NCBI GenBank assembly: GCA_023665755.1
Contig: JAMPDF010000001.1
Span: 344,181 to 408,180 of the forward strand
Reading direction: 5' to 3'
DNA: 64,000 nt
Source of the DNA: Prevotella sp.
GTDB lineage: Bacteria; Bacillota_I; Bacilli_A; ML615J-28; CAG-313
In this document: piece by piece, positions 10,178-45,632 of the stretch
How the letters are laid out: every line of letters begins with the position of its first letter
Numbering within the stretch: position 1 is the first letter of the stretch
Position numbers and translations under genes: made by a program
The notes under the pieces: model-generated
The model's input: the letters and a program-made list of their open reading frames with translations, nothing else
What the model was told of the DNA's origin: nothing
The model's database searches: none

Positions 10178-10179
10178 AA

Positions 10180-21996: not shown

Positions 21997-22022
21997 AGGG
22001 CAAAAAGAAAAGAACGCAAAAT
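21997..22022 (-). terminator. Rho-independent terminator after the small gene 22038..22328.
   Basis: AAAGAACGC..GCGTTCTTT hairpin followed by TCTTTTTG on the minus strand. Confidence 0.45.
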
Positions 22023-22037
22023 AAGCGTTCTTTAATA

Positions 22038-28938: not shown

Positions 28939-29053
28939 TTTTGTTCCTCCTTCTTTTTAACGACAAAAAAAGCACAATTTCTTGCGCTTTTTGTTTAAAT
29001 AATATTTCACGATACCATTATAACATATGAAAGGTGCCATCGAGGTGCCATTT

Positions 29054-29753: not shown

Positions 29754-29866
29754 TTTTCTCCTCCCATCCTAGCTTTACAGCTAATCTGTATAAAAATTTC
29801 TTTTCTTTTGCCCAAAGAGCATTTACTCGATAATCGCTATCCTGCGCGATTATAAATTTAATTAAA

Positions 29867-30076
29867 TCACATTTCGTAAACGTTTTGCCCTTCAACATGA
29901 TTTTTCATTTCTTCCTTTAATTTGTCATATGCTTTACTATGAATGTCATAGGATAAATCATATAGCTCATTGCTTTTAGCATTTCGTAGTCTATCTCTGA
30001 CTATTTTCTTTGAATTGATGCCGTCTTTGCAGAGCGTTTGAATTATCCAGTCTAGTGTTATTTTTTCTTCATTCAT
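29867..30076 (-). CDS. Hypothetical small protein.
   Basis: 69 aa ORF in the early array. Confidence 0.3.
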   Translation of the reverse strand: MNEEKITLDWIIQTLCKDGINSKKIVRDRLRNAKSNELYDLSYDIHSKAYDKLKEEMKNHVEGQNVYEM

Positions 30077-30251
30077 TTTTATTACCTTCTTTTATTTTAT
30101 CTTTGCAATTATATTGTGGCAAAATATGTTCAATATCTTTTAAGCAGCATTTTACCCATCCAAGTCTATCTAGAAAGCCACTATATTTACAAGTGTAGCA
30201 ACTACTTTTTTTAAATTGTTCTTTAGTCATTTTTTCTCCTTTATTGGGCAT
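30069..30251 (-). CDS. Small Cys-containing protein.
   Basis: 60 aa. CYTCKY..CC motif. Confidence 0.3.
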   Translation of the reverse strand: MPNKGEKMTKEQFKKSSCYTCKYSGFLDRLGWVKCCLKDIEHILPQYNCKDKIKEGNKNE

Positions 30252-30526
30252 CCTATCGGATGAATTTCACTTAAACTATATCTTTTTCTAATTTCGTTTA
30301 ATCCTTCATAAAATTCAGGATATTCTGTGCAAGGATTGTGTGGATTGCAATTATGTTTTAAATTAAAATCTGCAATATATAACTTTTCTTCTTCCAAATA
30401 TAACGTATATGAAGTATTATTTAACTCCTGTTGTAAACTATTTATTAAATTAACGTTAGAAAGGTAAGAATCTAGCATTTTAGGTTTAAATACATTAATT
30501 ACATTAACTTCGCTTTCTTTTTTCAT
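30227..30526 (-). CDS. Hypothetical protein.
   Basis: 99 aa ORF. Confidence 0.3.
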   Translation of the reverse strand: MKKESEVNVINVFKPKMLDSYLSNVNLINSLQQELNNTSYTLYLEEEKLYIADFNLKHNCNPHNPCTEYPEFYEGLNEIRKRYSLSEIHPIGCPIKEKK

Positions 30527-30546
30527 TCTTTAATGACACTATCCTT

Positions 30547-30999
30547 TTATCCACCAAAATATAGCCACCATTTAGCAGTTTTGCTTTCTAAGATATTCTT
30601 TTTTAAATTCTTAATTTCTTCTCGATTACTTAAAAATACACTTATTTGTGTTTGAACTAGTTCATTTGATTTTAGTTCTGGATAAAGTTGTATTAAAGTA
30701 ATTGTAGATTCGTTGTTAAATTGGTCATACACATCACTTTCCCAATTCATATATTCTTTTACAATCACTTTTAATTCTTCATCGATAACCATGTTTTCTT
30801 CTTCTAATATTTCTATTTGTTGCTGATAAACTTTTTCATAAATAATATCATTTATACAAAAACCTATAAGCGCTATCAACAAAAACATAATAAATCCAGA
30901 TATCATAATACCACCTATAAACCCATCAACATCTTTAAAATATAATATCGTAGACACAATAAGTAAAATTAAAAATAAAATAAATAATACTATTAACAT
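30547..30999 (-). CDS. Membrane protein (two TM helices).
   Basis: 150 aa. Confidence 0.35.
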   Translation of the reverse strand: MLIVLFILFLILLIVSTILYFKDVDGFIGGIMISGFIMFLLIALIGFCINDIIYEKVYQQQIEILEEENMVIDEELKVIVKEYMNWESDVYDQFNNESTITLIQLYPELKSNELVQTQISVFLSNREEIKNLKKNILESKTAKWWLYFGG

Positions 31000-31013
31000 T
31001 TTCTCCTCCTTAT

Positions 31014-31196
31014 CTATTTAATATTTACATATAATATCCAAATCGTTATAATTACAAAAACAAATATTAAGTCTGCAATTAATACAGCCCACAATTCTCG
31101 TACATCATCTATTGCAAATGTAACCATTAATATAATCAATCCTAATAATACTGTACTAATTATTGATAGTGCTAACATTTTAAATTTTTCTCCCAA
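31014..31196 (-). CDS. Small two-TM membrane protein.
   Basis: 60 aa. Confidence 0.3.
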   Translation of the reverse strand: MGEKFKMLALSIISTVLLGLIILMVTFAIDDVRELWAVLIADLIFVFVIITIWILYVNIK

Positions 31197-31205
31197 AATC
31201 TCATT

Positions 31206-31508
31206 TTAAGCCTCTTTTTTATTCCATATTTTTTTCGTAATAACCTCTGTTTTAAGTTCTAAAACTACTTCATATGGTTGATCATAAAATTCATTTTCTT
31301 GACATTCAGTCAGTCCTTCTTCCCATTCTAATGCAAAGTATCTATCATCTATTTTAAAAATTGTTGTTGCTTCTCTAGTCCAACTTCCATTTTCACCGTA
31401 TATAGTTTCTTCCTCTGCAAATTGCCAAGTTAAATCGCTTAATTCTTCTTCAGTAAATTCTTCACCATTATCAAATTTTTCTAAAAACCTTTTTTCATTA
31501 TATGTCAT
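31206..31508 (-). CDS. Acidic hypothetical protein.
   Basis: 100 aa. Confidence 0.35.
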   Translation of the reverse strand: MTYNEKRFLEKFDNGEEFTEEELSDLTWQFAEEETIYGENGSWTREATTIFKIDDRYFALEWEEGLTECQENEFYDQPYEVVLELKTEVITKKIWNKKEA

Positions 31509-32074
31509 TATACTATTTCCTCCTTAAGGGTATATTTAAAATATTTTTCAATTTCACTTCTTACTTTTTTAATACCTTCCTGATATGCTAATTCATAGCT
31601 TTCATAATAATAATCCTTATTATCAATTACATAAGAATTTGATTTAATATCACCTTGATATCTATAAATATCTAATCCTACTATAGTACCAAAATAATTT
31701 ATTTGATAATTATATTTTCCTTCTTCTATCTTCAAAATTGGGTCTCTACTAAAATTTTTTCTTTGAGCCTTACAAAATTTATTTAAATCTTCATCACTAG
31801 TTAAACAACTTTTTAAAAATTCTTTATTAATAAAATCAGAATTTTCAATATCTGAAAAATTATAATATGATACAACTTCCAAATAAAAATAATTAAAAGT
31901 AGTAGGGATTATCTTTTTCGCTATGTCAATCTTTTCATCTATAGTGATTTCTTTTGTTTTATCAATTTCTTGAAGTTGATTTTTTAATTCTTCTATTTCT
32001 TTTTTTAATTGATTATTTTCATTCATAGCATTTTCTAATTCTGCTAAAATATATTCATCTATTGTTTTTATCAT
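31508..32074 (-). CDS. Hypothetical protein with an N-terminal coiled-coil.
   Basis: 188 aa. Confidence 0.35.
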   Translation of the reverse strand: MIKTIDEYILAELENAMNENNQLKKEIEELKNQLQEIDKTKEITIDEKIDIAKKIIPTTFNYFYLEVVSYYNFSDIENSDFINKEFLKSCLTSDEDLNKFCKAQRKNFSRDPILKIEEGKYNYQINYFGTIVGLDIYRYQGDIKSNSYVIDNKDYYYESYELAYQEGIKKVRSEIEKYFKYTLKEEIV

Positions 32075-32086
32075 TTTTTCACCTCT

Positions 32087-32308
32087 TTATAATCTACTAG
32101 CGAAATCTTTCCAACGAATTTTTATTTCATTTTCAGTTCCGTTTTCCATATGCTTTTTACAATCATCACATACACGACGATCATTAAATTCTTTTACTTT
32201 ATACATAAAGCTATCCCAGTCAATGATGCCACATTTTTGACATTGAGATAATCCTTCTCCATTTGCCTTTTCAAATATGTATTTATTCATTTTCTTCAAC
32301 CCATACAT
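32087..32308 (-). CDS. Small zinc-ribbon protein.
   Basis: 73 aa. CQKC..CDDC. Confidence 0.35.
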   Translation of the reverse strand: MYGLKKMNKYIFEKANGEGLSQCQKCGIIDWDSFMYKVKEFNDRRVCDDCKKHMENGTENEIKIRWKDFASRL

Positions 32309-32945
32309 ATTGCCAACTTTGAGGGGCTTTTGCCATCCTTAATTTTGGACATAAACCAAAATCACAATAACCATCATCACCTAATATAGAATTGCCATGT
32401 GCATATAAACAATTATTGTCGTCACAACCATTAGATTCTAATTTATCTTTTATGACTTCATAATTATTTTTATAAAAATCATCCAATTCCATTGGTTCAT
32501 TGAATATTTGCAAATCATCTATGTGCCAAGCGAAAAATGGTTTATCGATGCCCACATAATTGTAAATTTCATTTTTTGTTAGTTGACAATCGTTTAAAAA
32601 CTCAGGATCTGGACTCGAATATTTAGAATTAAATGTTTCTCTTATTCTATTTAGCGTAAATTTAGCAACAACTTTGCCATTAAAATTTGCAGTTCTATAA
32701 GATGCATTTTCATCTTCGTAAGCACAGAATGATGTTGCATATCCAAATCCAGAAAGTGGCATATCATTATAATCGCTTTCAGCATAATATCCATATAAGA
32801 ATGGTTTACTCTTACAACAATATAAGTACACATCTATGGGGAAATCACATTTAGGCATTGTTTTTCTAATCTCAATTGTTTTTTTGCCGTTCAATATGTC
32901 TACCAAATATTGTGGTTGAATACTCATTAATATTGCTTGTTTCAT
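32283..32945 (-). CDS. ASCH (PUA-like) domain protein.
   Basis: The N-terminus MKQAILMSIQPQYLVDILNGKKTIEIRK matches the ASCH signature. Confidence 0.5.
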   Translation of the reverse strand: MKQAILMSIQPQYLVDILNGKKTIEIRKTMPKCDFPIDVYLYCCKSKPFLYGYYAESDYNDMPLSGFGYATSFCAYEDENASYRTANFNGKVVAKFTLNRIRETFNSKYSSPDPEFLNDCQLTKNEIYNYVGIDKPFFAWHIDDLQIFNEPMELDDFYKNNYEVIKDKLESNGCDDNNCLYAHGNSILGDDGYCDFGLCPKLRMAKAPQSWQYVWVEENE

Positions 32946-33203
32946 TTATTCCTCCTTTGTCTCTTCTTTGTAATGAATTGTTAATATTAAATTTCTCCAA
33001 TCATTAAATATTGGGCTTGTTGCAAATGTTATCTCACTTCCAACTTCATGAGCATCATATATTTCAGTTTTTCTATCAAAAGTAATATATTGTGATCGAT
33101 AATTTTTATTTGTGACTTTTATTTCTTCTTCAGTGATTATTACTTCATAACCACTTTCTTCAAGTTTTTGCTGATATTTATTCATACTTTTTCTCCTTTT
33201 CAA
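32946..33203 (-). CDS. Hypothetical protein.
   Basis: 85 aa. Confidence 0.3.
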   Translation of the reverse strand: MKRRKSMNKYQQKLEESGYEVIITEEEIKVTNKNYRSQYITFDRKTEIYDAHEVGSEITFATSPIFNDWRNLILTIHYKEETKEE

Positions 33204-33204
33204 T

Positions 33205-33636
33205 CTATTCTTTCATCAGTTCCTCAATACTGTATGGATCATTGTCTTCACATTTAATAAATTGGAATAATGACTTAAATGGAACACCACTAACATTGTT
33301 GTTCATAAATGACCATATACCATCATCCATTTTTTTATAAGGCTTCTTTTCATATGCATACAATTTACCATTTTCGTCTCTAGCAAGCCATTTAAAATCT
33401 TTAACCATATTTTTTAAAATAATTTTCTCATCTTCACTAAGTTGTAGTTTAATTTCAGGCACTTCAAATTCTTGTGAAAAATTGATATCAAAAATTTCAC
33501 AATTGCACAAAGAATTATATATACATTTTTCGCACATTACGCTACTATCTCCAGATGATTCTACGCATATTGCCTTTTGGGATTCTTGCAATAATTCCAT
33601 TTCTTCCAATGTAAAATCAATTAGTCTTTTTTTCAT
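33205..33636 (-). CDS. Hypothetical Cys-rich protein.
   Basis: 143 aa. CVESSGDSSVMCEKCIYNSLCNCE. Confidence 0.35.
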   Translation of the reverse strand: MKKRLIDFTLEEMELLQESQKAICVESSGDSSVMCEKCIYNSLCNCEIFDINFSQEFEVPEIKLQLSEDEKIILKNMVKDFKWLARDENGKLYAYEKKPYKKMDDGIWSFMNNNVSGVPFKSLFQFIKCEDNDPYSIEELMKE

Positions 33637-33648
33637 TTTTTTTCCTTT

Positions 33649-34554
33649 CTATTTATCTTTAAAATCAAAAATAGTAGTTTGATTTCTTAAACGATAACCT
33701 ATTCGCCTGTATTCATCATATATTGGTTTCCAAATTACTTCACATTGCTTTCTTTCTGCAGGAAGCAATTCCGCCATTACATCTAATTGATGTTGTAAAT
33801 CTAAAGAATATGGACAACCTTTACATCCTGTTCTTTTAAAATTAAAAGGCGGATAATAAAGCCTGCACAATTCAATTTCATACTTTTCAATAAACCAATC
33901 TTCCCATTCTGAAGAACAAACTAGTAATGGATGGAATCTAACAACTTTATTTCCTCTTGTCATAATGCAGTTTACTAAATTTGCCCTTTGACCACCTTCT
34001 TCAGCAAGCATACCAGTCATTGCAATTGTTTTACCGTTCATTTTTTCCCATTTATGAACGATATCCTTCTTAAGTCGATAACAACATTTATCAGATAACT
34101 TGATTTTAAAATCTTTTGAATATTGATATAATAAACTTTTTGGGCAAGCAAATTTAGATTTACCTGTCATTTCTTTGTAATAAAGAACAAATTTTGCCCT
34201 ACTTCCTTTTTGCCATTCACCAACTTTTAAAGAATGTTCTTTGCTTTTAAAAGGATATCCTTCTTTCTCAAGCATTTGCTTGATATTCACACCTGAATTA
34301 ATTATTTGAATGCGACTATCTTTAGATGCTAATTCTTTTACAAAATCAACAACATAGTTGTATTCAATTCCTGTGTTGATGAAAACTCTAGGTATTTTAT
34401 TACCAGGTAATGCGATATCCAAAAGATAATGTAGTACAGTGCTATCTTTTCCTCCACTAAATGAAAGATAGCCATTACTTTCTAAATCGTATTGCTGATT
34501 GATAGATTGTATTTTTTGTATGCGATCTATTTCTAACAATTCATTATCTGTCAT
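33649..34554 (-). CDS. Phosphoadenosine phosphosulfate reductase family (PP-loop ATPase, DndC/IbrA-like) protein.
   Basis: PP-loop SFSGGKDST. C-terminal Cys motifs (CKGCPY). Confidence 0.65.
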   Translation of the reverse strand: MTDNELLEIDRIQKIQSINQQYDLESNGYLSFSGGKDSTVLHYLLDIALPGNKIPRVFINTGIEYNYVVDFVKELASKDSRIQIINSGVNIKQMLEKEGYPFKSKEHSLKVGEWQKGSRAKFVLYYKEMTGKSKFACPKSLLYQYSKDFKIKLSDKCCYRLKKDIVHKWEKMNGKTIAMTGMLAEEGGQRANLVNCIMTRGNKVVRFHPLLVCSSEWEDWFIEKYEIELCRLYYPPFNFKRTGCKGCPYSLDLQHQLDVMAELLPAERKQCEVIWKPIYDEYRRIGYRLRNQTTIFDFKDK

Positions 34555-35054
34555 ACCTCATTCCCCCAACAATCCCAACCATCAACTTGTTGTCTAGCAA
34601 AAAGTTCGATTCGAGGTTCATATGACACTTTTTCAATCATTTGCCTCATTTTTAATGGTTTTTTACTGTGTATTGTTTTTGGTTCATAAAAACCAGTAAC
34701 ACCTTGAGCACGTTTGCCATCGATTAATTTATATGATAATCGCTTAGGAGTTGTAGCAAAAGGGCAATAGTTCACATCTTTTTCTATCTCTTCTTTACAT
34801 TTAGGACAATCATAATACGGGCGAAAATAGCAGTCTTCACCTGTATAATCTTCTAGTCTTTTTGTAGACAAATCAACTTTCATAGGTGTTGATTTATCCA
34901 CTAATTCTTTGATAATCACTAAAGAATCAGTCACTTTAATTAAGTTATTTATCATATTTGACATCTTTTCTTCTTGAGATGCTGATTTTGGAATAATAGA
35001 ATTTGTCTGTGCCAATAGAGCTAAATTTCTTAGTGCTTCTTGATATTTATTCAT
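34551..35054 (-). CDS. Hypothetical protein with a C-terminal Cys4 motif.
   Basis: 167 aa. CPKC..YCP. It overlaps both neighbours. Confidence 0.35.
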   Translation of the reverse strand: MNKYQEALRNLALLAQTNSIIPKSASQEEKMSNMINNLIKVTDSLVIIKELVDKSTPMKVDLSTKRLEDYTGEDCYFRPYYDCPKCKEEIEKDVNYCPFATTPKRLSYKLIDGKRAQGVTGFYEPKTIHSKKPLKMRQMIEKVSYEPRIELFARQQVDGWDCWGNEV

Positions 35055-35335
35055 TTCTCAATTACCTCAACTATCGCATTATAATACATATAGCGTTTGC
35101 CATTTACATGAAATAGGCAATAACTACCGCTATTATCTTCTATGTCAATTTTGCCTTCATATTCTGCAATTAATTCTCCTTGATAATTGTAAATACGTAC
35201 AATTCTATCTGTTCCATTGTTTAATTCGCTTGAACAATCTTTTCGCCATCTTTCACAAGACGCACAATTACAACTAACTAAGAAAAAACTACCTAAAATT
35301 GCTGTAATAATAAATATTAATCTTTTATTTTTCAT
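35051..35335 (-). CDS. Small lipoprotein.
   Basis: Signal peptide MKNKRLIFIITAILGSFFLVSC with a lipobox. The listed ORF start is probably too far upstream. Confidence 0.4.
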   Translation of the reverse strand: MKNKRLIFIITAILGSFFLVSCNCASCERWRKDCSSELNNGTDRIVRIYNYQGELIAEYEGKIDIEDNSGSYCLFHVNGKRYMYYNAIVEVIEK

Positions 35336-35342
35336 TTCCTCA

Positions 35343-35480
35343 CCTACTCCACATACAATGGCAAATTCCATCTCTTGCCATTGATAAAGATATATTTAGC
35401 TCTATCAGAATGCGTGCTTACTGTCATTTTGGTTAGATCAAAGTAAGCGAGTGCTTCTTTGTAGTTATTAATTTTTTTCA
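35343..35480 (-). CDS. Small protein (45 aa) that was not in the ORF track.
   Basis: ATG preceded by GAGGAGG. It overlaps the stop of the replisome organizer gene. Confidence 0.3.
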
Positions 35481-36355
35481 TCTTCTTCCTCCTCGTAGCC
35501 AAGCATTTCCTCTATGCTTGTATTTTTTTTATTTTCCAACGACTCAAGCCGTTGTAATCCGTTTTGTATGGATGCTTTAAAATAAGCGAATTTGTCGTCT
35601 ATATCTTTTTTGTCTTTCATTTGATTTATTGTATATTTAATTGCAGAAATAATTTTGTTGTATCGATAATGTGTAGCAATTTCAGCTAAGAAATTGTCAT
35701 ATTCAACTATATCAATGTCATATATTGAAATGAAATTATTACTGACTAGCATATTTGTGTAGTAATTTAAAACAGGCTTTCCTGGTATGTTATTTTTGCC
35801 TTTTTTATCTATATTTATCTTATTTATCTTTTTACTTTTACTTTGTTCATTATTGCATACATTAATTGAGTTATTGTCAACAATAACTGGGTTATTGCAT
35901 ACATTAACTGTTTTTTTGGGCGCGTTTAAAGGGGATGAATTCTCAGTACAAAATTTTTTATCATCCAATAGATTGTACTTGTCTATCACTGAGTCAGCTC
36001 TTCGCTTGGTAGACATGAGGTATTGCTTCTGAATCGAAACCGCAGTTATAACGTTGTCACGTACCAGGCTTTTATCAAATAAGTCGCACTGCACACAACA
36101 ATGAATTACTTGTTGGATCTTATTCAGGGAGACAAATTGTTTCTTTCCGTTTATTTCTTTCATTAGTAATATAGCTAAATCATCGATACTCATCTCGAGA
36201 TAATAGCCTTGCTCATAGATTAAGCACAAAATCAAGATATAAACGTATACTCCAACTGCTCCATGCTGAAATTGAAGCTTTATAATTTTTTCATCTTTTC
36301 TAAACGCAACGTCGAGCGGAAAATAACAAAGTCCTTTTTTCGTTGGTCTAGCCAT
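35468..36355 (-). CDS. Phage replisome organizer (Lin1244/Lin1753-like N-terminal domain, DnaD-related).
   Basis: The N-terminus MARPTKKGLCYFPLDVAFRKDEKIIKLQFQHG is typical of the family. Confidence 0.55.
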   Translation of the reverse strand: MARPTKKGLCYFPLDVAFRKDEKIIKLQFQHGAVGVYVYILILCLIYEQGYYLEMSIDDLAILLMKEINGKKQFVSLNKIQQVIHCCVQCDLFDKSLVRDNVITAVSIQKQYLMSTKRRADSVIDKYNLLDDKKFCTENSSPLNAPKKTVNVCNNPVIVDNNSINVCNNEQSKSKKINKINIDKKGKNNIPGKPVLNYYTNMLVSNNFISIYDIDIVEYDNFLAEIATHYRYNKIISAIKYTINQMKDKKDIDDKFAYFKASIQNGLQRLESLENKKNTSIEEMLGYEEEEDEKN

Positions 36356-36364
36356 ATGTTTCTC

Positions 36365-37069
36365 CTATTCAGGACAGACCCAAACAGGACATCCTGAAAT
36401 TTTTTGAATTTCTGTTTTAAATCTTTTTGCATCTGAATTTCCATTTGATAGATGCAGCAAATAGATTTCTTTTATTTTAGAAACGTCTTGTTCAACAATA
36501 AATTTTTTGACGTTTTCTAATTCAAAGTGGGATTTAAATAATCGTTTTGCCATTACATTGGTCAATTTCCCACTTTCTATATTTTTTTTAGCGATATCAT
36601 GTGCATAATTGCACTCAATCATCAAGTAATTAATTTGATCAAATCTATTCTTGATGTAATAAGTATCAGTTGCAAATAACAACGTTTTATTTGTTACCCT
36701 GCTTTTCAAATAATACCCAACAGGTTCTGCGGCATCATGTTCTGTTGCAAAAGGAATAACATCAAATGTACCAATGATGTATTTTTGGTTTGCTTTGATT
36801 ACTTTTGCATAGTTTTTAAACTGTTCACAATCAAAGTTATCAAATGTTCCTTGCGTTGCATATACTTCTTTGCAATTCTTTAACAATTTAACCAGTGATT
36901 TAGCATGATCCATGTGTTCGTGTGTGACTAGGCAGGCATCAAAGTCTAACCTAGTCTTTTCACGAATTTTATTTAAAGGTATGCCACATTCAAGCAGTAA
37001 AGTTGTTTTTCCGTCAGTGACAGAGTAACAATTGCCTTTACTGCTTGATGCAAAACTTTCTATCCACAT
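36365..37069 (-). CDS. MBL-fold metallo-hydrolase (putative recombination nuclease).
   Basis: HxHxDH motif VTHEHMDHAKSL. It is adjacent to RecT. Confidence 0.65.
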   Translation of the reverse strand: MWIESFASSSKGNCYSVTDGKTTLLLECGIPLNKIREKTRLDFDACLVTHEHMDHAKSLVKLLKNCKEVYATQGTFDNFDCEQFKNYAKVIKANQKYIIGTFDVIPFATEHDAAEPVGYYLKSRVTNKTLLFATDTYYIKNRFDQINYLMIECNYAHDIAKKNIESGKLTNVMAKRLFKSHFELENVKKFIVEQDVSKIKEIYLLHLSNGNSDAKRFKTEIQKISGCPVWVCPE

Positions 37070-38013
37070 TAGAAATATCCATTTCTTTGAGGCGCTTGTT
37101 GTTTTGGAGCAGTAGCTTCTGTATATGCTTTTAAAATATCCTCATTTTCGCCCATTTTTGGCTTTTCTTCTTCGACATTATTAGTTTTATCAAACGTTAG
37201 CATTTCGGCTTTATTTGCCTTATTTTCGACCTCGTTTCGCACTTCTTGAGCAGTTGATTCAACAAAATCTTGGTTTTGCATTTCGTATATCTCATCTTCA
37301 TTCTTAATAAGTGTTTCTGCAAGTAAGTCATCATCGTTTGACGTTTGAAGAATCATTTTGATCAAACGATTAATTGCTGTTCTCTTCATAAATTCACCTT
37401 CAAAATCTGTGTGATCTCTCTTATTACCCTTACTTGGATTTTTGAGCCAGGATTCTTTGATTTCAGATATCGTCATAACAGCACTTCTTTCAATTCCGTT
37501 TACAGTAACTGTTGCATACGCTCCTACACGTTTTCCTTTTAACTTGTTCTCCCAGCTTGTTTTGTGTGACAAAATAATTTCTTCGCCTAATTCGTTATGA
37601 TCCAGTTCTACTTCGTCACCTTCATAGATAATCGTTCCAATTGGCTCATTTTCAATTCCTTTTAATCTTTTGATGGAAGAACATTTGCCAAAATAGGATG
37701 TGTACCAACCAAGTTTATTGCCATATACGATGAAATACCCTTGTTTTTTCACAGGATTTAAGCCAAGAATTGCCATTTCTAAAAGAGAATTAACAACACT
37801 TTCTTTGGTGCAGACTTCTAAAGCTGGTCTACCATTGTTATCTTTCGTGTCTTGAATAATTAGCCAAGCAGAAGATAAAGCATTACCTGCAGAATAATTT
37901 TTAGGAAGGTCGAGCTTTCCTTGATTTGTTAGCTCAACAATTCTATTTAATACTTTTTCTGCTGGCGTTTTTTCCACTAATACTTGGTTTTGATTTTGTG
38001 TTTGAACTTGCAT
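37069..38013 (-). CDS. RecT-family single-strand annealing protein.
   Basis: 314 aa. Block SAWLIIQDTKDNNGRPALEVCTKESVVNSLLEMAILGLNPVKKQGYFIVYGNKLGWYTSYFG resembles the RecT core. Genomic context also fits. Confidence 0.55.
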   Translation of the reverse strand: MQVQTQNQNQVLVEKTPAEKVLNRIVELTNQGKLDLPKNYSAGNALSSAWLIIQDTKDNNGRPALEVCTKESVVNSLLEMAILGLNPVKKQGYFIVYGNKLGWYTSYFGKCSSIKRLKGIENEPIGTIIYEGDEVELDHNELGEEIILSHKTSWENKLKGKRVGAYATVTVNGIERSAVMTISEIKESWLKNPSKGNKRDHTDFEGEFMKRTAINRLIKMILQTSNDDDLLAETLIKNEDEIYEMQNQDFVESTAQEVRNEVENKANKAEMLTFDKTNNVEEEKPKMGENEDILKAYTEATAPKQQAPQRNGYF

Positions 38014-38015
38014 TT

Positions 38016-40016
38016 TTACTTAACCTCCATTTGTAGTTCTTTTTCGTTTTCTTTAACATATAATTTAATGAGTTGTGTATTTTCCAATTCATCAAATTTA
38101 GTCACACTTTCTGCGTTATCTATAAATATTGGAGCAATCGTTCCCTCAACTTTTTGCAAAGTTTTTATAATATCTAAACCAGCATTGATTTTTGCAGCAT
38201 TATTCGCATCATCAAATGGTACACCATCAATAGTGGCATAACATACTTCTTCATATCCACCATTAATTTGCTCTCTAAACATTGTGAAATTAACTTTGGT
38301 GAATAATTTGTTGACATCTTGTTCGATTAACTTCACTTTTTCTTTTAGGAATGATTCACATAGGTTTACTTTAACTATTGCTTGATTGTATTCATTAGAT
38401 AGTTGTTTTTGCTCCTGTTGTAATTCATTAATACGCTTTCTATTCGCAATATTGCTTTCATATCTAGATTTTCTGCCATAGTAGTCATCTAGTTTTTTGC
38501 TTTCTTGCATAATCGTTAAAGCTATATCTCCTGCGGAAGATGATTCACTCATCAATTGTTGCTTTTCTTCTCTTTTAGCAGCGATTTGATATTGAAGATG
38601 AATAATTTCATCTGTTGTTGACTTGAGGCATTGATTCTTTGCTTGCTCAAGTCTTTCTTCTGCTATAGTTAATTCTTGTTGCATTTCGCTAATTTTCGAT
38701 TGCATATTTATTGCTTCGATTTCATAGCTTCTTAAAGATAACTTTGAATTATTCAACTCATTTTGTATATTTCCATACTCAACTTTTAATTGCTTACCAT
38801 TTTCAATCGCTTTCTGTAATTTGTTCGCCTTGTCTAGGTTGAACATTTCTTTTGCGTGTTCAACTTGTTCTTGTGGCAATGCTTGTCCACAGGTAGGGCA
38901 AACTGTTTCGCCATTAAATACTGCGCCATCTATTTCAGCACATCTTTGATATGCTGTTTCAATAAGCTTGTCAAGATCTAAGATGCGTTCTTCTTGTCTT
39001 GATATAAGTGTTTCTGTATCTACCTTTTTCACCCCTATAGCTAATTTTTCGCCTTTTTTAAATTGAAGCGTTGTGGATAGATTTTGAACTTCTTCTTGAA
39101 GTTCTTTTAGTTTTGCACCATCATTTTCCATTTTCACTAATTTGGCTTGATGCAACTTTTCTTCTAACGCCAAAATTTCGCCATCTATCGCTTTTAATAT
39201 TGCAAGGTTAGTCTTTGTGTTCCTTTGCTCTTGAAGTTCCAAAATATAGTCTTTTTGGGCTTGAATTAACGTTTTAACGTCTTCTAAGCCACTTATATCG
39301 TCTTCCTCAGTTTCTGTATTGATCATAGATTGCAATTCTTCTATTTTGTATCCATAGGAAGGAATTTGCTTATTTGCTGTAGAAGCTGCTGCTTTGTATT
39401 TAGCTGTCAATTCTTCAATACTTAGCACTTTCAATTCCTCCAACAAAGGATACAAAGATGAATTTTTTTCTACTACATCTAAATTGGATACATCAGGAAT
39501 AGCCTTAAGCAACACCTCACGTTTTGTCTTTTTATCCATTTTGTTAAAGTAAAATGGGGCAGTGAGCATTTTGAAGGTATCTTCAGAACATAACTTGTCT
39601 ACTTCTTGTTGATATTCTTTTAACAATTTGGGCGCACCATCTTTAAAATAAGATGTTTCATGCCCTGTAAATGTGCTTTGTGTTTCACCGCGTTTTTTGG
39701 TGTATTTTTCACGTAGCACTTTTTTTAATTCCACATCGTAAGTTAACAATCCATCATCAACAGTGAATACAGCAGATACTGAATAATCAACATTGTGCAA
39801 GACATTGCCATTTGCATCAATTGGCTTAATGCTAAAATCGCTTGCCCCATTGCTGTTTTTGTTGAAAAGTAGCCAAAGGAATGCATCGACAATAGTTGTT
39901 TTACCTGTTGCATTGTCACCATAAAAGTTAACTGATTGATTTGCAAAATCGAAGGTTCTCTTTTTTATTCCTTTAAAATTCTGCAAAGTTAGATTTTTTA
40001 TTGTTATTTTTTTCAT
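38016..40016 (-). CDS. AAA ATPase with a long coiled-coil (SbcC/Rad50/RecN-like).
   Basis: Walker A GDNATGKTT at the N-terminus. About 350 aa of coiled-coil. ABC-signature-like C-terminus. Confidence 0.6.
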   Translation of the reverse strand: MKKITIKNLTLQNFKGIKKRTFDFANQSVNFYGDNATGKTTIVDAFLWLLFNKNSNGASDFSIKPIDANGNVLHNVDYSVSAVFTVDDGLLTYDVELKKVLREKYTKKRGETQSTFTGHETSYFKDGAPKLLKEYQQEVDKLCSEDTFKMLTAPFYFNKMDKKTKREVLLKAIPDVSNLDVVEKNSSLYPLLEELKVLSIEELTAKYKAAASTANKQIPSYGYKIEELQSMINTETEEDDISGLEDVKTLIQAQKDYILELQEQRNTKTNLAILKAIDGEILALEEKLHQAKLVKMENDGAKLKELQEEVQNLSTTLQFKKGEKLAIGVKKVDTETLISRQEERILDLDKLIETAYQRCAEIDGAVFNGETVCPTCGQALPQEQVEHAKEMFNLDKANKLQKAIENGKQLKVEYGNIQNELNNSKLSLRSYEIEAINMQSKISEMQQELTIAEERLEQAKNQCLKSTTDEIIHLQYQIAAKREEKQQLMSESSSAGDIALTIMQESKKLDDYYGRKSRYESNIANRKRINELQQEQKQLSNEYNQAIVKVNLCESFLKEKVKLIEQDVNKLFTKVNFTMFREQINGGYEEVCYATIDGVPFDDANNAAKINAGLDIIKTLQKVEGTIAPIFIDNAESVTKFDELENTQLIKLYVKENEKELQMEVK

Positions 40017-40028
40017 GCAAAATTCCTC

Positions 40029-40286
40029 CTACTCCCCATTCAAATCGTATAGTTCGATAATGATTATTCTTCTATCTTGCTCATCGATTATTTCTTCTTT
40101 AATAAACGGAAAAGCGCCTATCAAAACACCTGTTCCTTTCTCATTTGCAAAGGCGATAGCCTTCATTGTTTGGTTGATTGCACCTGCTCCAATGCACTTG
40201 ATTTTGACATCTTCCTTCTGTATATTCTTCAATATATACGTTCCTAAAGCAGCTGGTTTGGTTTTGCTGCTACACTTTAAAATCAT
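40029..40286 (-). CDS. SpoVS (stage V sporulation protein S) family protein encoded in the phage early operon.
   Basis: 85 aa. KCIGAGAINQTMKAIAFANEKG...IIIELYDL aligns with B. subtilis SpoVS (AIGAGALNQAVKAVAIARGF...IKLIVEPR). A strong AGGAGG RBS precedes it. Confidence 0.6.
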   Translation of the reverse strand: MILKCSSKTKPAALGTYILKNIQKEDVKIKCIGAGAINQTMKAIAFANEKGTGVLIGAFPFIKEEIIDEQDRRIIIIELYDLNGE

Positions 40287-40302
40287 ATTTTCTCCTCCTT
40301 TA

Positions 40303-40458
40303 ATTTAATGATTTTGCCTTCTTGAGTGACTTCGATTAGCCCCTCTTTTATCTTTTTTTCTAACAAACTGTAAACAAAAATACCCATACGATCTAGAGAT
40401 TTTTGTTTTGATTCGTTATAAATTATTTCAATTTCGTTGTATAACTCTGTTTCCATTG
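40303..40458 (-). CDS. Small protein (51 aa) that was not in the ORF track. It is the first gene after the ribozyme.
   Basis: METELYNEIEIIYNESKQKSLDRMGIFVYSLLEKKIKEGLIEVTQEGKIIKL. Its stop overlaps the SpoVS RBS. Confidence 0.3.
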
Positions 40459-40607
40459 AATCTTCTCCTTTCTCTCAATCGTATGAGTATAATTTGTTAA
40501 ATATGCAAAGCTAGACTGTGCCTAATTAAGTTTAGCCATGATTGGTACAAAGTAATGTAGTTATTTCCTGGGGGGAAGCCATGGATAGACACTTTGCATT
40601 TGGCTTG

Positions 40608-40670
40608 TGCCAAGACCATCGCCATTTAGGCTAGGTTTCGCCTGAGTTGCACAGGCTCATCAGTTGGCTA
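40608..40670 (-). ncRNA. Hammerhead ribozyme, type I topology, in the early leftward transcript.
   Basis: Minus strand: UAGCCAA-CUGAUGA-GCCUG(UGCAACU)CAGGC-GAAA-CC..GGU-C-UUGGCA. The full conserved core is present (CUGAUGA, GAA, G10.1-C11.1, A15.1-U16.1, GUC cleavage triplet). Stem II is 5 bp. Stem I is UUGGC/GCCAA. Stem III is ACC/GGU plus an inner GCC-UAAAU-GGC. Confidence 0.6.
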
Positions 40671-40722
40671 TTTGTCAATGTTACAATTGTTTTTTGCTTT
40701 TCAGTCATGAAAATAGAGACAA

Positions 40723-40911
40723 TTATTTTAAAAAAATATTGATATCAACATTGTAATGGCTAGCAATTATTTGAACTTCGCTAAATTTAAATTCTGTTTT
40801 TCCCTTCATTTTATGATATAAAGATGTAACATGAATATTTAACAATTTAGCAATATCTTCTTGGGTATCGCCATGTTCTGCCATTAAACCTTTTAATTTT
40901 GAAATGTTCAT
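40723..40911 (-). CDS. Cro-like XRE-family HTH regulator.
   Basis: 62 aa. HTH QEDIAKLLNIHVTSLYHKMKG. Confidence 0.6.
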   Translation of the reverse strand: MNISKLKGLMAEHGDTQEDIAKLLNIHVTSLYHKMKGKTEFKFSEVQIIASHYNVDINIFLK

Positions 40912-41000
40912 TTTTAATCTCCTTTCTTGTATTATATTTATTTTTGCCCTTTACAATTTTTAAACTATATGATAAAATTTTGTCGAAAGGGGGTGATGTT

Positions 41001-41144
41001 ATGCCAAATTCAAAGCAAACATCTAAGAAAGTCGCTACAAAAGCTTCTAAAATACTTAACGATAATAGATACAGCAAAACATCGAAAAGTGTTGCAGGAA
41101 GCGCATTAGCTCAAACCAAAACGTCAAATAAAACTAAAAAATAG
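41001..41144 (+). CDS. Small basic protein (47 aa) divergent from cro.
   Basis: Strong RBS AAAGGGGGTGAT before the ATG. MPNSKQTSKKVATKASKILNDNRYSKTSKSVAGSALAQTKTSNKTKK. Confidence 0.35.
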   Translation: MPNSKQTSKKVATKASKILNDNRYSKTSKSVAGSALAQTKTSNKTKK

Positions 41145-41469
41145 TTTTATTGTCGTTTAAAATTTGATAGATTGAACTTGCTAAACTATCTATCAAATGC
41201 TCATTATCGTGTTCTTCTGCGAATCCTAATTGTTCAAATATACTATGTAGGATTTCGTGTAGTAACACGATTTTTTTTCGCTCCTCGCTTAATCCTTTTT
41301 TTAATAAAATAACTTGATCTATATGATTTATCTCACCTATTTGGCTTCCTCCATGTGAAATACATTCTACCTCTCTTATTTCAAATTCCAAATTAAGAAT
41401 TTTAATTTTATTGACAGATATGTTTTGTGTCGCTATCGTTTCATTTATTGATCCTTTTTCCCAATCCAT
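41134..41469 (-). CDS. ImmA/IrrE-family metallopeptidase domain protein (anti-repressor protease-like).
   Basis: HEXXH embedded in LLHEILHSIFEQ. 111 aa. Confidence 0.5.
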   Translation of the reverse strand: MDWEKGSINETIATQNISVNKIKILNLEFEIREVECISHGGSQIGEINHIDQVILLKKGLSEERKKIVLLHEILHSIFEQLGFAEEHDNEHLIDSLASSIYQILNDNKTIF

Positions 41470-41470
41470 T

Positions 41471-41845
41471 TTATTCCTCCTGATCTATATCTTCTTTAAT
41501 AAATTTTGCTATTCTTTCAGCATTCATATCAATTCTTTTTAATTGTTTTTTGTATTTTGAGCGAACTCTTTTTATGGTAGGTGGATCAAATCTTTTATCT
41601 ATTCTTACTGTACGGCTATCTTTTAAAAATTCCTTTTTAGCTTTTCTTGTCGGTTCTTTAACTAGCGTTTTAAAAGTATTTTTGGAAAAACTGAGTGTTT
41701 TTTCCTCATTATTTCCTTTTTGATAATATAAGCTATATTCTATTTCCATTCGTATTTTTATATCATCACCTAAATATTTTTTTATCTTTTTTAAAAATAT
41801 TTTCTTTTTTGAAAACATGTTATTCTCCTTAAAAAAATGTGTCAA
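41471..41845 (-). CDS. Basic hypothetical protein.
   Basis: 124 aa, K/R-rich. Stop/start coupled to the ImmA-like gene. Confidence 0.35.
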   Translation of the reverse strand: MTHFFKENNMFSKKKIFLKKIKKYLGDDIKIRMEIEYSLYYQKGNNEEKTLSFSKNTFKTLVKEPTRKAKKEFLKDSRTVRIDKRFDPPTIKRVRSKYKKQLKRIDMNAERIAKFIKEDIDQEE

Positions 41846-42170
41846 AAAGCCTTACTTTTTAACACACTAAAAATTTATATTTAAATAATCCTCGTGAGTT
41901 TTCGACAATTCCACAAGGCATAAGGCTATCAAGTTGCCACCTCTTTTTTCCAATCAATTGCAATTCACAAAAGCTTAAGCCGTGATGCTTTTGCTACGAT
42001 AGCATTCTATATTTACTGATACTGTGCTATCTTTCTCGAGTGTGTTTCGGTAAGTGGTGCAACTCGAGCTGCAAGTGTTCCACTCTTTACTACCAACGTT
42101 ATAATTCTTTCGGCTAGGCTTTCAAACGTTCTATTCCTAGCGACTAGGTATCAACTAGTCATATATAAAA

Positions 42171-42428
42171 TTAAATCATTAGCCATCCTTTTGACGTTTC
42201 GTCAAGAATTGTAAAAACAGGTTTATGGGATAAAATTCCCCCATTCCCCCATTTGTACACAGTTATCTCACGAACATTTGTTTCTTCACTTAAACAAACG
42301 TTCTTATTATAGCGATTATCTAATGCGGCTTTAATTGCCTCATTTAGTGAAGAAAACGAACCTATATAATAGGTACCACTTTTCATCCTAGATTTTTTTC
42401 CTCTAATTTCTGATGCAACAACAAACAT
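42171..42428 (-). CDS. Hypothetical protein. It may be the 3' part of a degraded gene together with the frame fragment at 42448..42600.
   Basis: 85 aa ORF. An upstream out-of-frame fragment (..VIVHSDNGFKYEG..) reads like a gene remnant. Confidence 0.25.
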   Translation of the reverse strand: MFVVASEIRGKKSRMKSGTYYIGSFSSLNEAIKAALDNRYNKNVCLSEETNVREITVYKWGNGGILSHKPVFTILDETSKGWLMI

Positions 42429-42745
42429 ATTTTCCTCCTTTATTCAATAATTATATATAATGTCTTTTTGGATAATTCCCATTTTACAACTTCATTACTT
42501 GATTTTTTCCATATATCAAATAACTCAATTGTTTGGGGAGTATCCCAAGTTCCTTCATATTTAAATCCATTATCTGAATGAACAATCACTTTGTTATATT
42601 TACGTTATTTTGTCAGTGTTTTTATGACATCAACAACATTATAACAATTTTTTGCTGACAAGTCAAGTGTTTTGTCATTATTTTATTGTTTTTTTTCAAA
42701 TCAAATGCTATAATTTGATAGTAAATTAAAAGAGGTGTCACTATA

Positions 42746-43087
42746 ATGCTAAAAAATAATATAAAATTTCTAAGAAAAGAACAAAAAATTACAATAAGAG
42801 ATTTAGAAGAGAAAGTACATATTAATAGAACAACATTATCAAGAATGGAAAACGGATTACAAAATATTAGTGATGAATATCTTCATACACTATCTAATTT
42901 TTTCAATGTGTCTACAGACTACTTATTAGGACTATCAGATATTCGCAATCCTGAAAAGGAATTGAATAAACAACAAGAATCAGATCCTATCTTCTTCTCA
43001 TTATATGATGAAGTAAAGGAATTAACTGAAGAACAAAAGGAGGAGATATTAGATATAATCAAAAAATTAAAAGCTTTTAAAAAATAA
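42746..43087 (+). CDS. cI-like XRE-family repressor.
   Basis: The HTH QKITIRDLEEKVHINRTTLSRMENG sits at the N-terminus. A TATAAT at about 42709 lies upstream. The gene is divergent from the early operon. Confidence 0.6.
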   Translation: MLKNNIKFLRKEQKITIRDLEEKVHINRTTLSRMENGLQNISDEYLHTLSNFFNVSTDYLLGLSDIRNPEKELNKQQESDPIFFSLYDEVKELTEEQKEEILDIIKKLKAFKK

Positions 43088-43116
43088 CGCATTATACATA
43101 TTTAGGAGGGGGAATA

Positions 43117-43317
43117 ATGTTAAAGGAGGCGAATTTAAAAAGTATCAATGGTATTGTTGTTAAAATAGACAATACTTTTTACATCGTTTACGACGAAAAA
43201 CTTAGTGATGGCGAAAAAGAAAAACTAATTAATTGTCTACAAACTCATATCAAACTAAACAGGTTTGATTTCAAACTCATTGGCAATGAAATCATTGAAA
43301 GTGAGGTAATAAAATGA
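43117..43317 (+). CDS. Small protein between the repressor and the integrase.
   Basis: 66 aa. RBS GGAGGGGG. It overlaps the integrase start. Confidence 0.35.
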   Translation: MLKEANLKSINGIVVKIDNTFYIVYDEKLSDGEKEKLINCLQTHIKLNRFDFKLIGNEIIESEVIK

Positions 43318-44750
43318 AAACAGTGCTCTACATAAGAGTATCAACTAAAGAGCAAGCCAAAGAAGGCTTTTCAATTCCGTTTCAAAAAGAAAAACTATGC
43401 AAGTATTGCGAAATGATGAATTGGGATATAGTCGATATTTATTCGGATGAAGGAATATCAGGCTCTACAATTGAAAAAAGACCTGCAGCAACACGTATGC
43501 TACAGGATGCAAAAAAGAAATTATTTGAAAATATATTAATATTAAGAGTAGACAGACTTTGCAGAAACACAAAGGATTTACTCGAAATTGTTGATTTGCT
43601 AAAAGAATACGACATAAGTCTAAATGCAATTGATCAACAAATTGACTATAAAACAAGCATCGGTAAAATGACGCTTACCATTCTAGGTACTTTTGCTGAA
43701 TTTGAACACTCTATCATTCACGAACGTATGATGGAAGGAAAAAGGCAAAAAGCAACTACAACAGGCATCAAGATGATAGGTAGACGTGTTCCATATGGAT
43801 ATGACTACATCGACAAAAAACTAATTGCTAATCAATTTGCACCAACAATTAAACTAATATTTGAAAAAGTAGCTGAAGGATACGGATATAATTCAACAGC
43901 TACTTTTTTACGCAAAAATAATGTGCCAACTATTGATGTGTTAGACTGGAATAGAAATCAGATAAAAAAGATTATCAATAATAAAGTATACATGGGTCAT
44001 TGTTGTGTCAAATTTGATAGAATTGAAGTTGTTGATGTAGTAGCGACAAACGTTGAACCTATTGTAAGCGAGGAACTTTGGCACAAAGCAAACGATATTC
44101 AATCGTTTAAAACTAAAAATGGCATCAAAAAATATGCCTATGATGATTTCATATTTGCTGATGTCCTCTACTGTTCAAGGTGTGGCTGGAAATTATCATC
44201 AAAGAAATATAAAAGAAAAGGAAAAAATAAGGATGATTATACATTCTACCGCTATTATAAATGCATCTACAACGAGTGGCATTTAAGCAATCCAGTATGC
44301 AATACTAAAATTGTAAATGCTGAAAAATTTGAAAAAGCATTTATTGAATTTATTAAGCAATACCATATCCAATTAAAGAAAGAGAAAAAAAAGGAAAATG
44401 ATCCTTCTTTTAATGATGATTTTTTGGAAAAAGAATTAGCAAATTTAGTAAGGCAAAAATCAAAATTATTGGATAAATATTTAAACGGCTTTATTGAGGA
44501 TGAGATGTACTTTTCTAAAAATAGCACATTATCAGAAGAAATTAAAAGTTTAAAAGAAAAGATTGAAAGTAAAAAGTATATTAATAAGGAAGAAAAAGAA
44601 ATAGATCTAAATTATTTGGAAAGCATAAAAGTGATATTAAGCGATATTTGGGAAATAATGAGCGATAAAGAAAAAAGAGTTTTTATATCGACAACTTTTG
44701 AAAAGATTTTAATTGATAATGGGCAAATAAAACAGGTAATATTTAGATAA
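43314..44750 (+). CDS. Large serine recombinase (phage integrase).
   Basis: Resolvase-type N-terminus MKTVLYIRVSTKEQ..GFSIPFQ. Recombinase and zinc-ribbon region (CSRCGWKL). C-terminal coiled-coil. 478 aa, at the prophage edge. Confidence 0.8.
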   Translation: MKTVLYIRVSTKEQAKEGFSIPFQKEKLCKYCEMMNWDIVDIYSDEGISGSTIEKRPAATRMLQDAKKKLFENILILRVDRLCRNTKDLLEIVDLLKEYDISLNAIDQQIDYKTSIGKMTLTILGTFAEFEHSIIHERMMEGKRQKATTTGIKMIGRRVPYGYDYIDKKLIANQFAPTIKLIFEKVAEGYGYNSTATFLRKNNVPTIDVLDWNRNQIKKIINNKVYMGHCCVKFDRIEVVDVVATNVEPIVSEELWHKANDIQSFKTKNGIKKYAYDDFIFADVLYCSRCGWKLSSKKYKRKGKNKDDYTFYRYYKCIYNEWHLSNPVCNTKIVNAEKFEKAFIEFIKQYHIQLKKEKKKENDPSFNDDFLEKELANLVRQKSKLLDKYLNGFIEDEMYFSKNSTLSEEIKSLKEKIESKKYINKEEKEIDLNYLESIKVILSDIWEIMSDKEKRVFISTTFEKILIDNGQIKQVIFR

Positions 44751-44751
44751 A

Positions 44752-44783
44752 CTTGACTAATTTGTAAAAATTTGTTATAATAT
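44752..44783 (+). promoter_or_regulatory. Consensus-like promoter TTGACT-17-TATAAT immediately after the integrase gene.
   Basis: TTGACT at 44752..44757 and TATAAT at 44775..44780. A hairpin plus T-run follows at about 44815..44880. Confidence 0.35.
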
Positions 44784-44879
44784 AATAGCAGTTAGAATTT
44801 CTAAGCTGTATACCTATGGCAGTGAATTAACGTTTAAACGATATGTAATATCGTCACCCATAGGGTTCTTCTTCTTATT

Positions 44880-45632
44880 TTAATAATAAGTATATGCAAT
44901 AAAAAAATCCAATTTCTTTTGTGAAGTTGGATTTTTTTTGTCTTTTGTCGCCCAGACAAATACCTGAGATCCGTACATAATTAAATAGCCTATTCCATAT
45001 CTTGATACAATAAATTCTCCTACAATAACACCTACCCAAGACATCCCAATATTGATTTTAACAATACTGACTAGATTAGTCAAATTAGCAGGTAAAATAA
45101 GTTTGGTTAAAATTTGCCATTTACTGGCTTTAAAACTTTGTAACATTTTTATTTTTTCTTCTTCTACTTGTACAAATGCACTATGAGCTGATATGATAGT
45201 GAGCACCAGTGAAATAGAAATAGCTACTGCTGTAATCCCCTTAATGCCTGTGCCTATCCAAATGATAATGATTGGGGCAAGTGCCGTTTTTGGAAGTGCA
45301 TTAAATACAACTAAAAACGGATCACATATTTTTGCCAATGTTTTATTCCACCAAAGAGCAATGGCTATCCCTATTCCTGCTAGTGTTCCAATGATTAGCC
45401 CTAGCATAGTCTCTAATACAGAAATGCCAATATGCTTATAGATTTCTTTTGTCTCAATATATCTTTTTAACAATGCCCCTATTTTAGATGGCCGGCTAAA
45501 TAAAAATGCATCAATAATTTCAAATCGAGAACATAATTCCCATGAAACAAGAAACACCACCAAGAGAAGGATTTGAGTGATTAAGACCGTTATTGCTTTC
45601 TTTCTTTTTTCAATTAAATATGGATTATTCAT
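44880..45632 (-). CDS. ABC transporter permease (SsuC/ThiX-like). Its 3' end has been replaced by phage-derived codons.
   Basis: Six-TM permease body. The last 17 codons (..KNPTSQKKLDFFIAYTYY) run into phage att-arm DNA. The true C-terminus is at 4965..5087. Confidence 0.65.
   Translation of the reverse strand: MNNPYLIEKRKKAITVLITQILLLVVFLVSWELCSRFEIIDAFLFSRPSKIGALLKRYIETKEIYKHIGISVLETMLGLIIGTLAGIGIAIALWWNKTLAKICDPFLVVFNALPKTALAPIIIIWIGTGIKGITAVAISISLVLTIISAHSAFVQVEEEKIKMLQSFKASKWQILTKLILPANLTNLVSIVKINIGMSWVGVIVGEFIVSRYGIGYLIMYGSQVFVWATKDKKNPTSQKKLDFFIAYTYY

Follow-up and report, generated by a model that had tools for sequence, protein, structure and literature searches.

The SpoVS-like gene and its product

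The 64,000-nucleotide (nt) window analyzed here (contig JAMPDF010000001.1, positions 344,181 to 408,180) contains a prophage, one of whose genes encodes a protein of 85 amino acids (aa) related to stage V sporulation protein S (SpoVS). This coding sequence lies at 40029..40286 on the minus strand, starts with ATG, and ends with TAG. Just upstream of it are a small open reading frame (ORF), here called orf57, a structured leader, and a hammerhead ribozyme; downstream are genes for an SMC/SbcC-like ATPase, a RecT single-strand annealing protein (SSAP), and a metallo-beta-lactamase-fold (MBL) hydrolase. Endospore formers conserve SpoVS, as do many other bacteria. The protein was described in 1995, and our literature search found no paper demonstrating a biochemical activity for it.

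The initial annotation of this locus, made from the sequence alone, called the protein a full-length homolog of SpoVS and proposed a search with Pfam family PF04232 as the check. That search returned a significant match (42.4 bits, E = 6.1e-11, residues 2 to 63) well above the gathering cutoff of 24 bits. The protein also matched PHROG 35646 ("sporulation protein"; E = 2.9e-8) and, by sequence, the SpoVS-related protein of Thermus thermophilus (Protein Data Bank [PDB] entries 2eh1 and 2ek0; E = 1.5e-3). A 51-sequence alignment, which runs end to end with canonical SpoVS, showed that the invariant residues L3, K4, S7, G33, A34, A36, N38, Q39, K42, G53, P60, and I75 are all retained, and the family motif (I/V)GAGAxNQxxKAxA is present as IGAGAINQTMKAIA. 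A profile built from the protein and its relatives recovered at least 7,996 PF04232 proteins. The NCBIfam library gave no SpoVS match, but a canonical SpoVS control was likewise unmatched; the library thus lacks such a model and the test is uninformative. Membership in the SpoVS family is secure. Phage genes of this class already have annotations in GenBank, UniProt, and PHROGs and have been reported from viromes, so that the gene in the window is a further member. Two public entries in the nr database, MCM1259661.1 and MCM1349916.1, are identical to the protein and are named "stage V sporulation protein S."

An AlphaFold2 model made with the 51-sequence alignment had a mean pLDDT of 94.2 and a predicted topology of strand-helix-strand-helix-strand-strand, including the hydrophobic C-terminal strand. 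When the model was compared with the PDB by Foldseek, the top matches were SpoVS structures (TM-score, 0.85 to 0.88; root mean square deviation, 1.6 to 2.2 Å): those of T. thermophilus (2eh1 and 2ek0) at 0.86 to 0.88 and that of Bacillus subtilis (chain B of 9a7h, an integrative model) at 0.85 with 30% identity. SpoVS has been placed in the Alba superfamily of DNA- and RNA-binding proteins by modeling and HHpred (PMC2732212, PMC11621453). Foldseek also matched our model to Alba proteins (Alba, Sso10b, and Rpp20/Rpp25) with TM-scores of 0.53 to 0.64 and E values of 8e-4 to 5e-2. The probability of these matches was about 1.0, and the protein is of the same fold class as Sso10b (1h0x) and Rpp20/Rpp25; unlike these it is much less basic, and it has no detectable sequence similarity to them. 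Its charge is divided, with +6 in the N-terminal half and -5 in the C-terminal half (isoelectric point [pI], 7.7), and lysines K4, K8, and K42 are retained.

The protein shares with the chromosomal SpoVS of B. subtilis and its T. thermophilus counterpart its size (85 versus 86 to 90 aa), motif, invariant residues, and predicted fold. It differs from them in being encoded in a phage early operon, in having a C-terminal half that is divergent and acidic, and in that its nearest relatives are phage proteins. Its identity to 47 canonical SpoVS members is only 30 to 38%, and it lacks the combination of high identity to, and grouping with, the canonical proteins that would mark a chromosomal spoVS ortholog; judged by sequence, it is not one. 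It is a divergent member of the family, the phage's own, and a small domain of the Alba superfamily.

Compared with its orthologs in two related loci (L001 and L002), the SpoVS-like gene had a ratio of nonsynonymous to synonymous substitution rates (dN/dS) of 0.12 to 0.17 at dS values of 0.65 to 1.0, which is similar to that of neighboring genes. This level of purifying selection indicates that the gene is real and constrained, and that it is probably expressed as a protein.

The early operon

The SpoVS-like gene has a near-consensus ribosome-binding site, AAAGGAGGAGAAAAT-ATG, with GGAGG 7 nt ahead of the ATG. That feature had been recognized in the initial annotation, as had the co-oriented and tightly coupled genes for the ATPase, RecT, and the MBL protein, which follow on the same strand after a gap of 12 nt. 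The same annotation placed the SpoVS-like gene at the head of the operon, and there our result differs. The first cistron after the leader is orf57 (57 aa; 40283..40456, minus strand), which overlaps the start of the SpoVS-like gene by 4 nt (ATGA). This ORF is conserved, and the SpoVS-like gene is the second cistron of a ribozyme-delimited unit and not its head. It is spaced at -4 nt from orf57 and, from its stop codon to the ATG of the ATPase gene, at +12 nt.

The product of orf57 is 68 to 88% identical in L001, L002, L027, L029, L032, and L113, with dN/dS of 0.07 to 0.12. It matched no Pfam, PHROG, or NCBIfam family. A single-sequence AlphaFold2 model (pLDDT, 77) predicted a helix-helix-beta-hairpin with no significant fold match in the PDB; the best matches, weak ones with E values above 1, were winged-helix DNA-binding domains.

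All the genes that follow are on the minus strand. The ATPase (666 aa; 38016..40016) matched Pfam AAA_23 (1.6e-10) and PHROG 77 (SbcC-like; 7.5e-60). RecT (37069..38013) matched Pfam RecT (93.7 bits) and PHROG 148, and the MBL hydrolase (36365..37069), a putative nuclease partner, matched Pfam Lactamase_B_2 and PHROG 392 (4.4e-68). Next comes a Lin1244_N replication initiation or organizer protein (35468..36355; Pfam PF14297, 69.9 bits; PHROG 2562). Upstream of the ribozyme, the ORF list includes a Cro-like helix-turn-helix (HTH) protein of 62 aa (40723..40911, minus strand), homologs of which occupy the same position in L001, L029, L031, and L113. A CI-like HTH repressor gene lies at 42746..43087 on the plus strand; its product is 59% identical to an HTH_3/HTH_19 protein of L001. 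The strongest sigma-70-like promoter of the region (42666..42638, minus strand; TTGACT-17-TATAAT with a TG element) is divergent from the CI-like gene.

No sigma-70-like promoter was found next to the SpoVS-like gene (the sigma-H consensus was not searched for), and there was no convincing terminator-like site beside it or between the SpoVS-like, ATPase, RecT, and MBL genes. It is therefore not a moron in the sense of an autonomous cassette that is expressed from the prophage, usually has its own promoter and terminator, and lies outside the core operons. Its embedding in the operon, with neither signal adjacent, points to expression in the early lytic program and not to that of a moron expressed in the lysogen.

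A phage clade with a conserved gene order

A search of 1.84 billion representative proteins with the SpoVS-like protein by exhaustive phmmer gave only 17 matches at an E value of 1e-3 or better. The nearest of those examined (P0003, P0008, and P0010) are all in phage recombination cassettes. With tblastn, the protein found nothing among 50,697 phage records at an E value of 1e-3; homologs in these records emerged only when canonical SpoVS served as the query. We defined a clade as the loci whose SpoVS resembles the window protein more than it does canonical SpoVS; 12 of the loci that we fetched qualified, which with the window makes 13. Across this clade identity to the window protein falls from 91% to about 40%. 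One close relative, "Podoviridae sp. ctcf755" (AXF52131.1; UniProt A0A345BNW0), is 74% identical and has the same cassette (L028).

In all 13 loci a recombination module starts directly downstream of the SpoVS-like gene, but it is not always the same module. The window, L001, L002, L027, L028, and L114 have the SMC-like ATPase, RecT, and MBL genes; L029 and L030 have ERF, a 291-aa protein, and SSB; L032, L113, L115, and L033 have ERF, a YabA-like protein, and SSB; and L031 has a 219-aa protein, YqaJ exonuclease, and SSB. L113 and L114 have the same SpoVS-like protein with different modules behind it. Wherever a clade locus extends far enough upstream, a hammerhead is present, in most cases accompanied by the leader and orf57. 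Only L031 lacks orf57, which is better conserved (68 to 88% identity) than the SpoVS-like protein (about 40 to 78%). We consider the cassette of hammerhead, leader, orf57, SpoVS-like gene, and variable recombination module to be the part of this locus most worth following up.

The hammerhead ribozyme and the leader

The ribozyme is a type I hammerhead resembling RAGATH-1, at 40609..40668 on the minus strand (40609..40690 in the feature listing), with predicted cleavage after C40614. In stem I, GCCAA (40668..40664) pairs with UUGGC (40613..40609), and the core CUGAUGA lies at 40663..40657. Neither Rfam gathering threshold was reached: the full-length score was 21.2 bits against 56.3 for RF03152 (RAGATH-1-hammerhead) and 19.9 against 48.5 for RF00008 (Hammerhead_3). 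Although it falls below these thresholds, the hammerhead proposed in the initial annotation is, on comparative evidence, real. The core CUGANGA...GAAA...GUC is invariant in 12 related loci, and stems I, II, and III covary among L001, L027 to L033, and L113 to L115, as judged by inspection and not by a formal count of pairs. Stem II occurs as GCCUG/CAGGC, GUCGU/ACGAC, and GUCUU/AAGAC. Stem III forms a short hairpin, with an inner helix of GCC/GGC or GAGC/GCUC, or, in some relatives, carries an insert that is conserved and about 105 nt long. The most distant locus, L031, has ACCUA/UAGGU in stem I where the others have GCCAA/UUGGC. The related hammerheads start at position 5749 in L001, 974 in L027, 921 in L028, 704 in L029, 4813 in L031, 1 in L032, 902 in L033, 4634 in L113, and 1744 in L114.

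All types repeat the 5' strand of stem I just after its 3' strand (UUGGC-ACAA-GCCAA; UAGGU-AUUA-ACCUA), which would allow a hairpin to form at the very start of the cleaved mRNA. Between the cleavage site and orf57 is a conserved structured 5' leader of about 150 nt (40457..40608, minus strand), which matched no Rfam family. RNAalifold predicted 25 pairs from an alignment of six sequences, among them a long-range helix, AUGCARAGU/GCUYUGCAU, with one covarying pair; there is also a conserved hairpin, UAGAC-ACA-GUCUA. In L027 two small ribbon-helix-helix-like ORFs and an ORF on the opposite strand are inserted between the leader and orf57 (1269..1841), which suggests that the leader is able to drive other first cistrons. 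If the predicted cleavage occurs, the cassette is a clean natural case of a hammerhead that sets where an early mRNA of a phage begins.

The prophage and its host

The prophage extends over 39.9 kb (5076..44958) and has integrated into an ABC permease gene at its 3' end. Its boundaries follow from L021, a contig of a related strain (elongation factor G [EF-G] 97% identical) that has the same host genes without the phage: the alignment breaks at 5075/44959 of the window, with a 2-nt overlap, around an empty site at 17777-17778 of L021. An overlap of 2 nt is as expected for a serine integrase, and a large serine integrase gene is present at 43314..44750 (plus strand), 89% identical in product to a Resolvase/Recombinase/Zn_ribbon_recom protein of L001. 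The insertion replaces about the last 37 codons of the permease, which has 260 aa in L021 and 250 aa, with a new C terminus, in the window. Together with the head and portal genes, these findings support the prophage status given in the initial annotation. The prophage also encodes a scaffold protein and a DNA methylase with a ParB-like domain. Between the stop codon of the integrase gene and the right end of the prophage (attR, 44958) is a DUF3800-I RNA (Rfam RF02969; 44781..44902, plus strand; 72.8 bits against a gathering threshold of 44.2). Downstream of the replication gene are an MT-A70-like fragment (34551..35054) and a protein with a PAPS-reductase domain (33649..34554), both on the minus strand; a PAPS reductase (yitB) is among the "sporulation" homologs enriched in phages of spore formers (PMC10294663).

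The phage resides in an uncultured gut bacterium of the class Bacilli with a low GC content (31.7% in the window), a placement based on EF-G homologs and on the empty site in L021. The host EF-G is 81% identical to that of a metagenome-assembled genome doubtfully labeled "Staphylococcus sp.," 66% identical to that of a "Bacilli bacterium," and about 60% identical to those of Liberiplasma, Izemoplasmataceae, and Acholeplasmatales, which are Mollicutes-like Bacilli. The host flank contains a gene for a GerAB-like permease (62319..63368, plus strand; Spore_permease, 34.2 bits against a gathering threshold of 23.4) and a GerAA-like gene on the same strand that begins at 63365 and is cut by the end of the window at 64000 (GerA, 85 bits against a threshold of 27). 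The two genes make a spore-forming host plausible, and we agree with the initial annotation that the host probably forms spores. They also hint at endospore formation in an uncultured lineage of Mollicutes-like Bacilli.

Possible roles of the SpoVS-like protein

The initial annotation offered two interpretations, that the phage manipulates sporulation or that the Alba-like fold is reused for nucleic-acid binding. In our analysis the second appears to fit the context better. We tentatively favor the reading that the phage makes the SpoVS-like protein early, as a small accessory that binds nucleic acid or a protein partner when recombination and replication begin; a dedicated function as a sporulation effector seems improbable. 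The context behind this preference is the early lytic operon, the translational coupling, the invariant upstream ribozyme, and the interchangeable recombination module downstream. Further points in its favor are the assignment of SpoVS to the Alba superfamily, the retained lysines and the +6 charge of the N-terminal half, the position of other phage SpoVS genes among genes of DNA metabolism, the occurrence of the family in Streptomyces and Bacteroides phages, and the PDB model 9a7h described below. We infer the timing of expression, the cleavage, and the biochemical activity to be as follows. The operon would be silent in the lysogen, presumably under the CI-like repressor. Once transcribed, the early RNA would be cut by the hammerhead after C40614, which would free an mRNA with a hairpin-capped, structured leader. 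This mRNA would encode orf57, the SpoVS-like protein, and then the recombination and replication genes, and translation of the SpoVS-like gene would be coupled to that of both its neighbors, orf57 and the ATPase gene. The SpoVS-like protein may then bind DNA ends, single-stranded DNA, or RNA, or it may bind or modulate a nuclease. A fixed cassette beside interchangeable recombination modules would be a compact and testable setting in which to learn which of these, DNA ends, RNA, or a nuclease, the SpoVS fold binds.

Several points weigh against this reading. We know of no SpoVS protein that has been shown by experiment to bind nucleic acid, and the link to Alba is structural only; the overall charge of the window protein is near neutral, at a pI of 7.7. 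Since the recombination partner varies while the SpoVS-like gene stays, a specific complex with one recombinase is argued against, and the linkage to the modules could instead reflect a shared mosaic boundary. By synteny alone, the ribozyme with its leader and orf57 are tied to the gene no less strongly than the modules are. Sporulation is probable in the host, and it is the only process in which the family has a known phenotype. Finally, we scanned the first two downstream genes in 21 IMG/VR clusters with SpoVS, and the only ERF and YabA matches were in L113, which belongs to the clade. The 20 other clusters had no recombination families there; PTPS occurred twice, along with radical SAM and methylases, and the remainder were unknowns. 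The idea that all viral SpoVS genes adjoin recombination genes is refuted by these 20 of 21 clusters, and the linkage to the modules is specific to this clade.

Arguments for a role in sporulation come from what the protein is and where it is found. It is a bona fide family member with the invariant residues, in a probable spore former with GerA and GerAB genes, and a canonical spoVS persists in related Bacilli of low GC content (L003 and L004). A phage protein could then mimic or poison host SpoVS, through mixed dimers or competition for partners, and so block or redirect sporulation once the lytic program starts. Phages of spore formers do carry sporulation regulators (PMC10294663), virome studies list viral spoVS as a sporulation auxiliary metabolic gene (AMG) (PMC6172770, PMC8940887), and the SpoVS-like gene evolves faster between related phages than orf57, RecT, and MBL do, as host-interaction genes often do. 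However, an identity of 30 to 35% is low against a chromosomal SpoVS that is very conserved, and the gene, which lacks its own promoter and lies within the early lytic operon, is probably not expressed in the lysogen. In this clade, linkage to the ribozyme and the recombination modules is invariable. Moreover, spoVS is absent from the 31 sporulation genes enriched in phages of spore formers in a census of gut phages (PMC10294663), and the family occurs in phages whose hosts, Streptomyces and Bacteroides, form no endospores, as well as in bacteria that likewise form none, such as Thermus (PMC2732212 for the bacteria). We regard manipulation of sporulation as unlikely; it is unproven, and another reading is better supported. 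A general caution follows for virome studies, some of which read viral PF04232 matches in this way: not every such match is a "sporulation AMG."

The same synteny would also suit a pair of regulators. Here orf57, which may be winged-helix-like, and the SpoVS-like protein would bind the leader, the ribozyme product, or the early promoters and so control how strongly or when the replication and recombination genes behind them are expressed, through autoregulation, mRNA stabilization, or antitermination. The hammerhead and the SpoVS-like gene occur together wherever the upstream sequence suffices, mostly with the leader and orf57; orf57, with its 4-nt overlap, is better conserved still than the SpoVS-like gene; many proteins of the Alba superfamily bind RNA; and winged-helix domains were the best, if weak, fold matches of orf57. 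These matches were not significant (E above 1), however, RNA binding is known for no SpoVS protein, and L031 keeps the hammerhead, the SpoVS-like gene, and the recombination module with no clear orf57 between them. We consider such a pair unlikely as well. That the gene is a neutral passenger, a host spoVS captured once and carried without function, is extremely improbable. SpoVS is sporadic among phages, with canonical-type genes in 16 of 50,697 records, but a dN/dS of 0.12 to 0.17 at a dS of up to about 1 led us to reject this explanation. In addition, length, motif, and position are kept at only about 40% identity and across different recombination modules.

A narrower form of the partner-binding idea compares the gene to lambda gam. 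Gam and other genes just upstream of SSAP-exonuclease pairs occupy the same slot in the early operon as the SpoVS-like gene. The SpoVS fold could be a binder or modulator of nucleases or phosphoesterases that this phage clade uses in the "Gam slot"; the protein, released early by the ribozyme, would neutralize or recruit a host nuclease and thereby protect or process DNA ends for the SSAP module that follows. Gam is unrelated to the SpoVS-like protein in fold and sequence, and inhibition of a host nuclease is read here purely from position. The evidence consists of that position and the title of PDB 9a7h, a deposited integrative model that pairs B. subtilis SpoVS with YunD. We take YunD to be a putative phosphoesterase or nuclease; our literature search found no paper linking it to SpoVS, and the YunD lead comes from that title only. 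We think this version very unlikely. If it were true, it would provide the first biochemical handle on the role of chromosomal SpoVS in sporulation.

SpoVS proteins of other viruses

The phage records with canonical-type SpoVS included those of Bacillus phage BCD7, Lysinibacillus phages, the Streptomyces BRock group, and Bacteroides phage BS162P1. The annotated phage proteins (PHROG 35646; BCD7 gp031; LysYB1 and LysYB2; BRock) resemble the window protein in being phage-borne, single-domain members of the family. Unlike it, the copies in BCD7 and in the Lysinibacillus and Streptomyces phages are closer to canonical SpoVS and lie among DNA-modification or unknown genes, without a recombination module directly downstream. 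In BCD7 the gene is flanked by a RusA-like resolvase and ribonucleotide reductase on one side and by queuosine-type DNA-modification genes on the other, and PTPS and radical-SAM genes adjoin two other viral copies. A record of Stenotrophomonas phage TS-12 (L025; MW302330.1, 10909..11184) contains a SpoVS that is 72% identical to a Firmicute protein and lies by ABC-transporter and phosphohydrolase genes; the record is doubtful, perhaps mislabeled or chimeric, and was not used as evidence. Some metagenomic proteins of 185 to 452 aa (P0011, P0012, P0016, P0017, P0020, and P0021) have two to four SpoVS domains in tandem.

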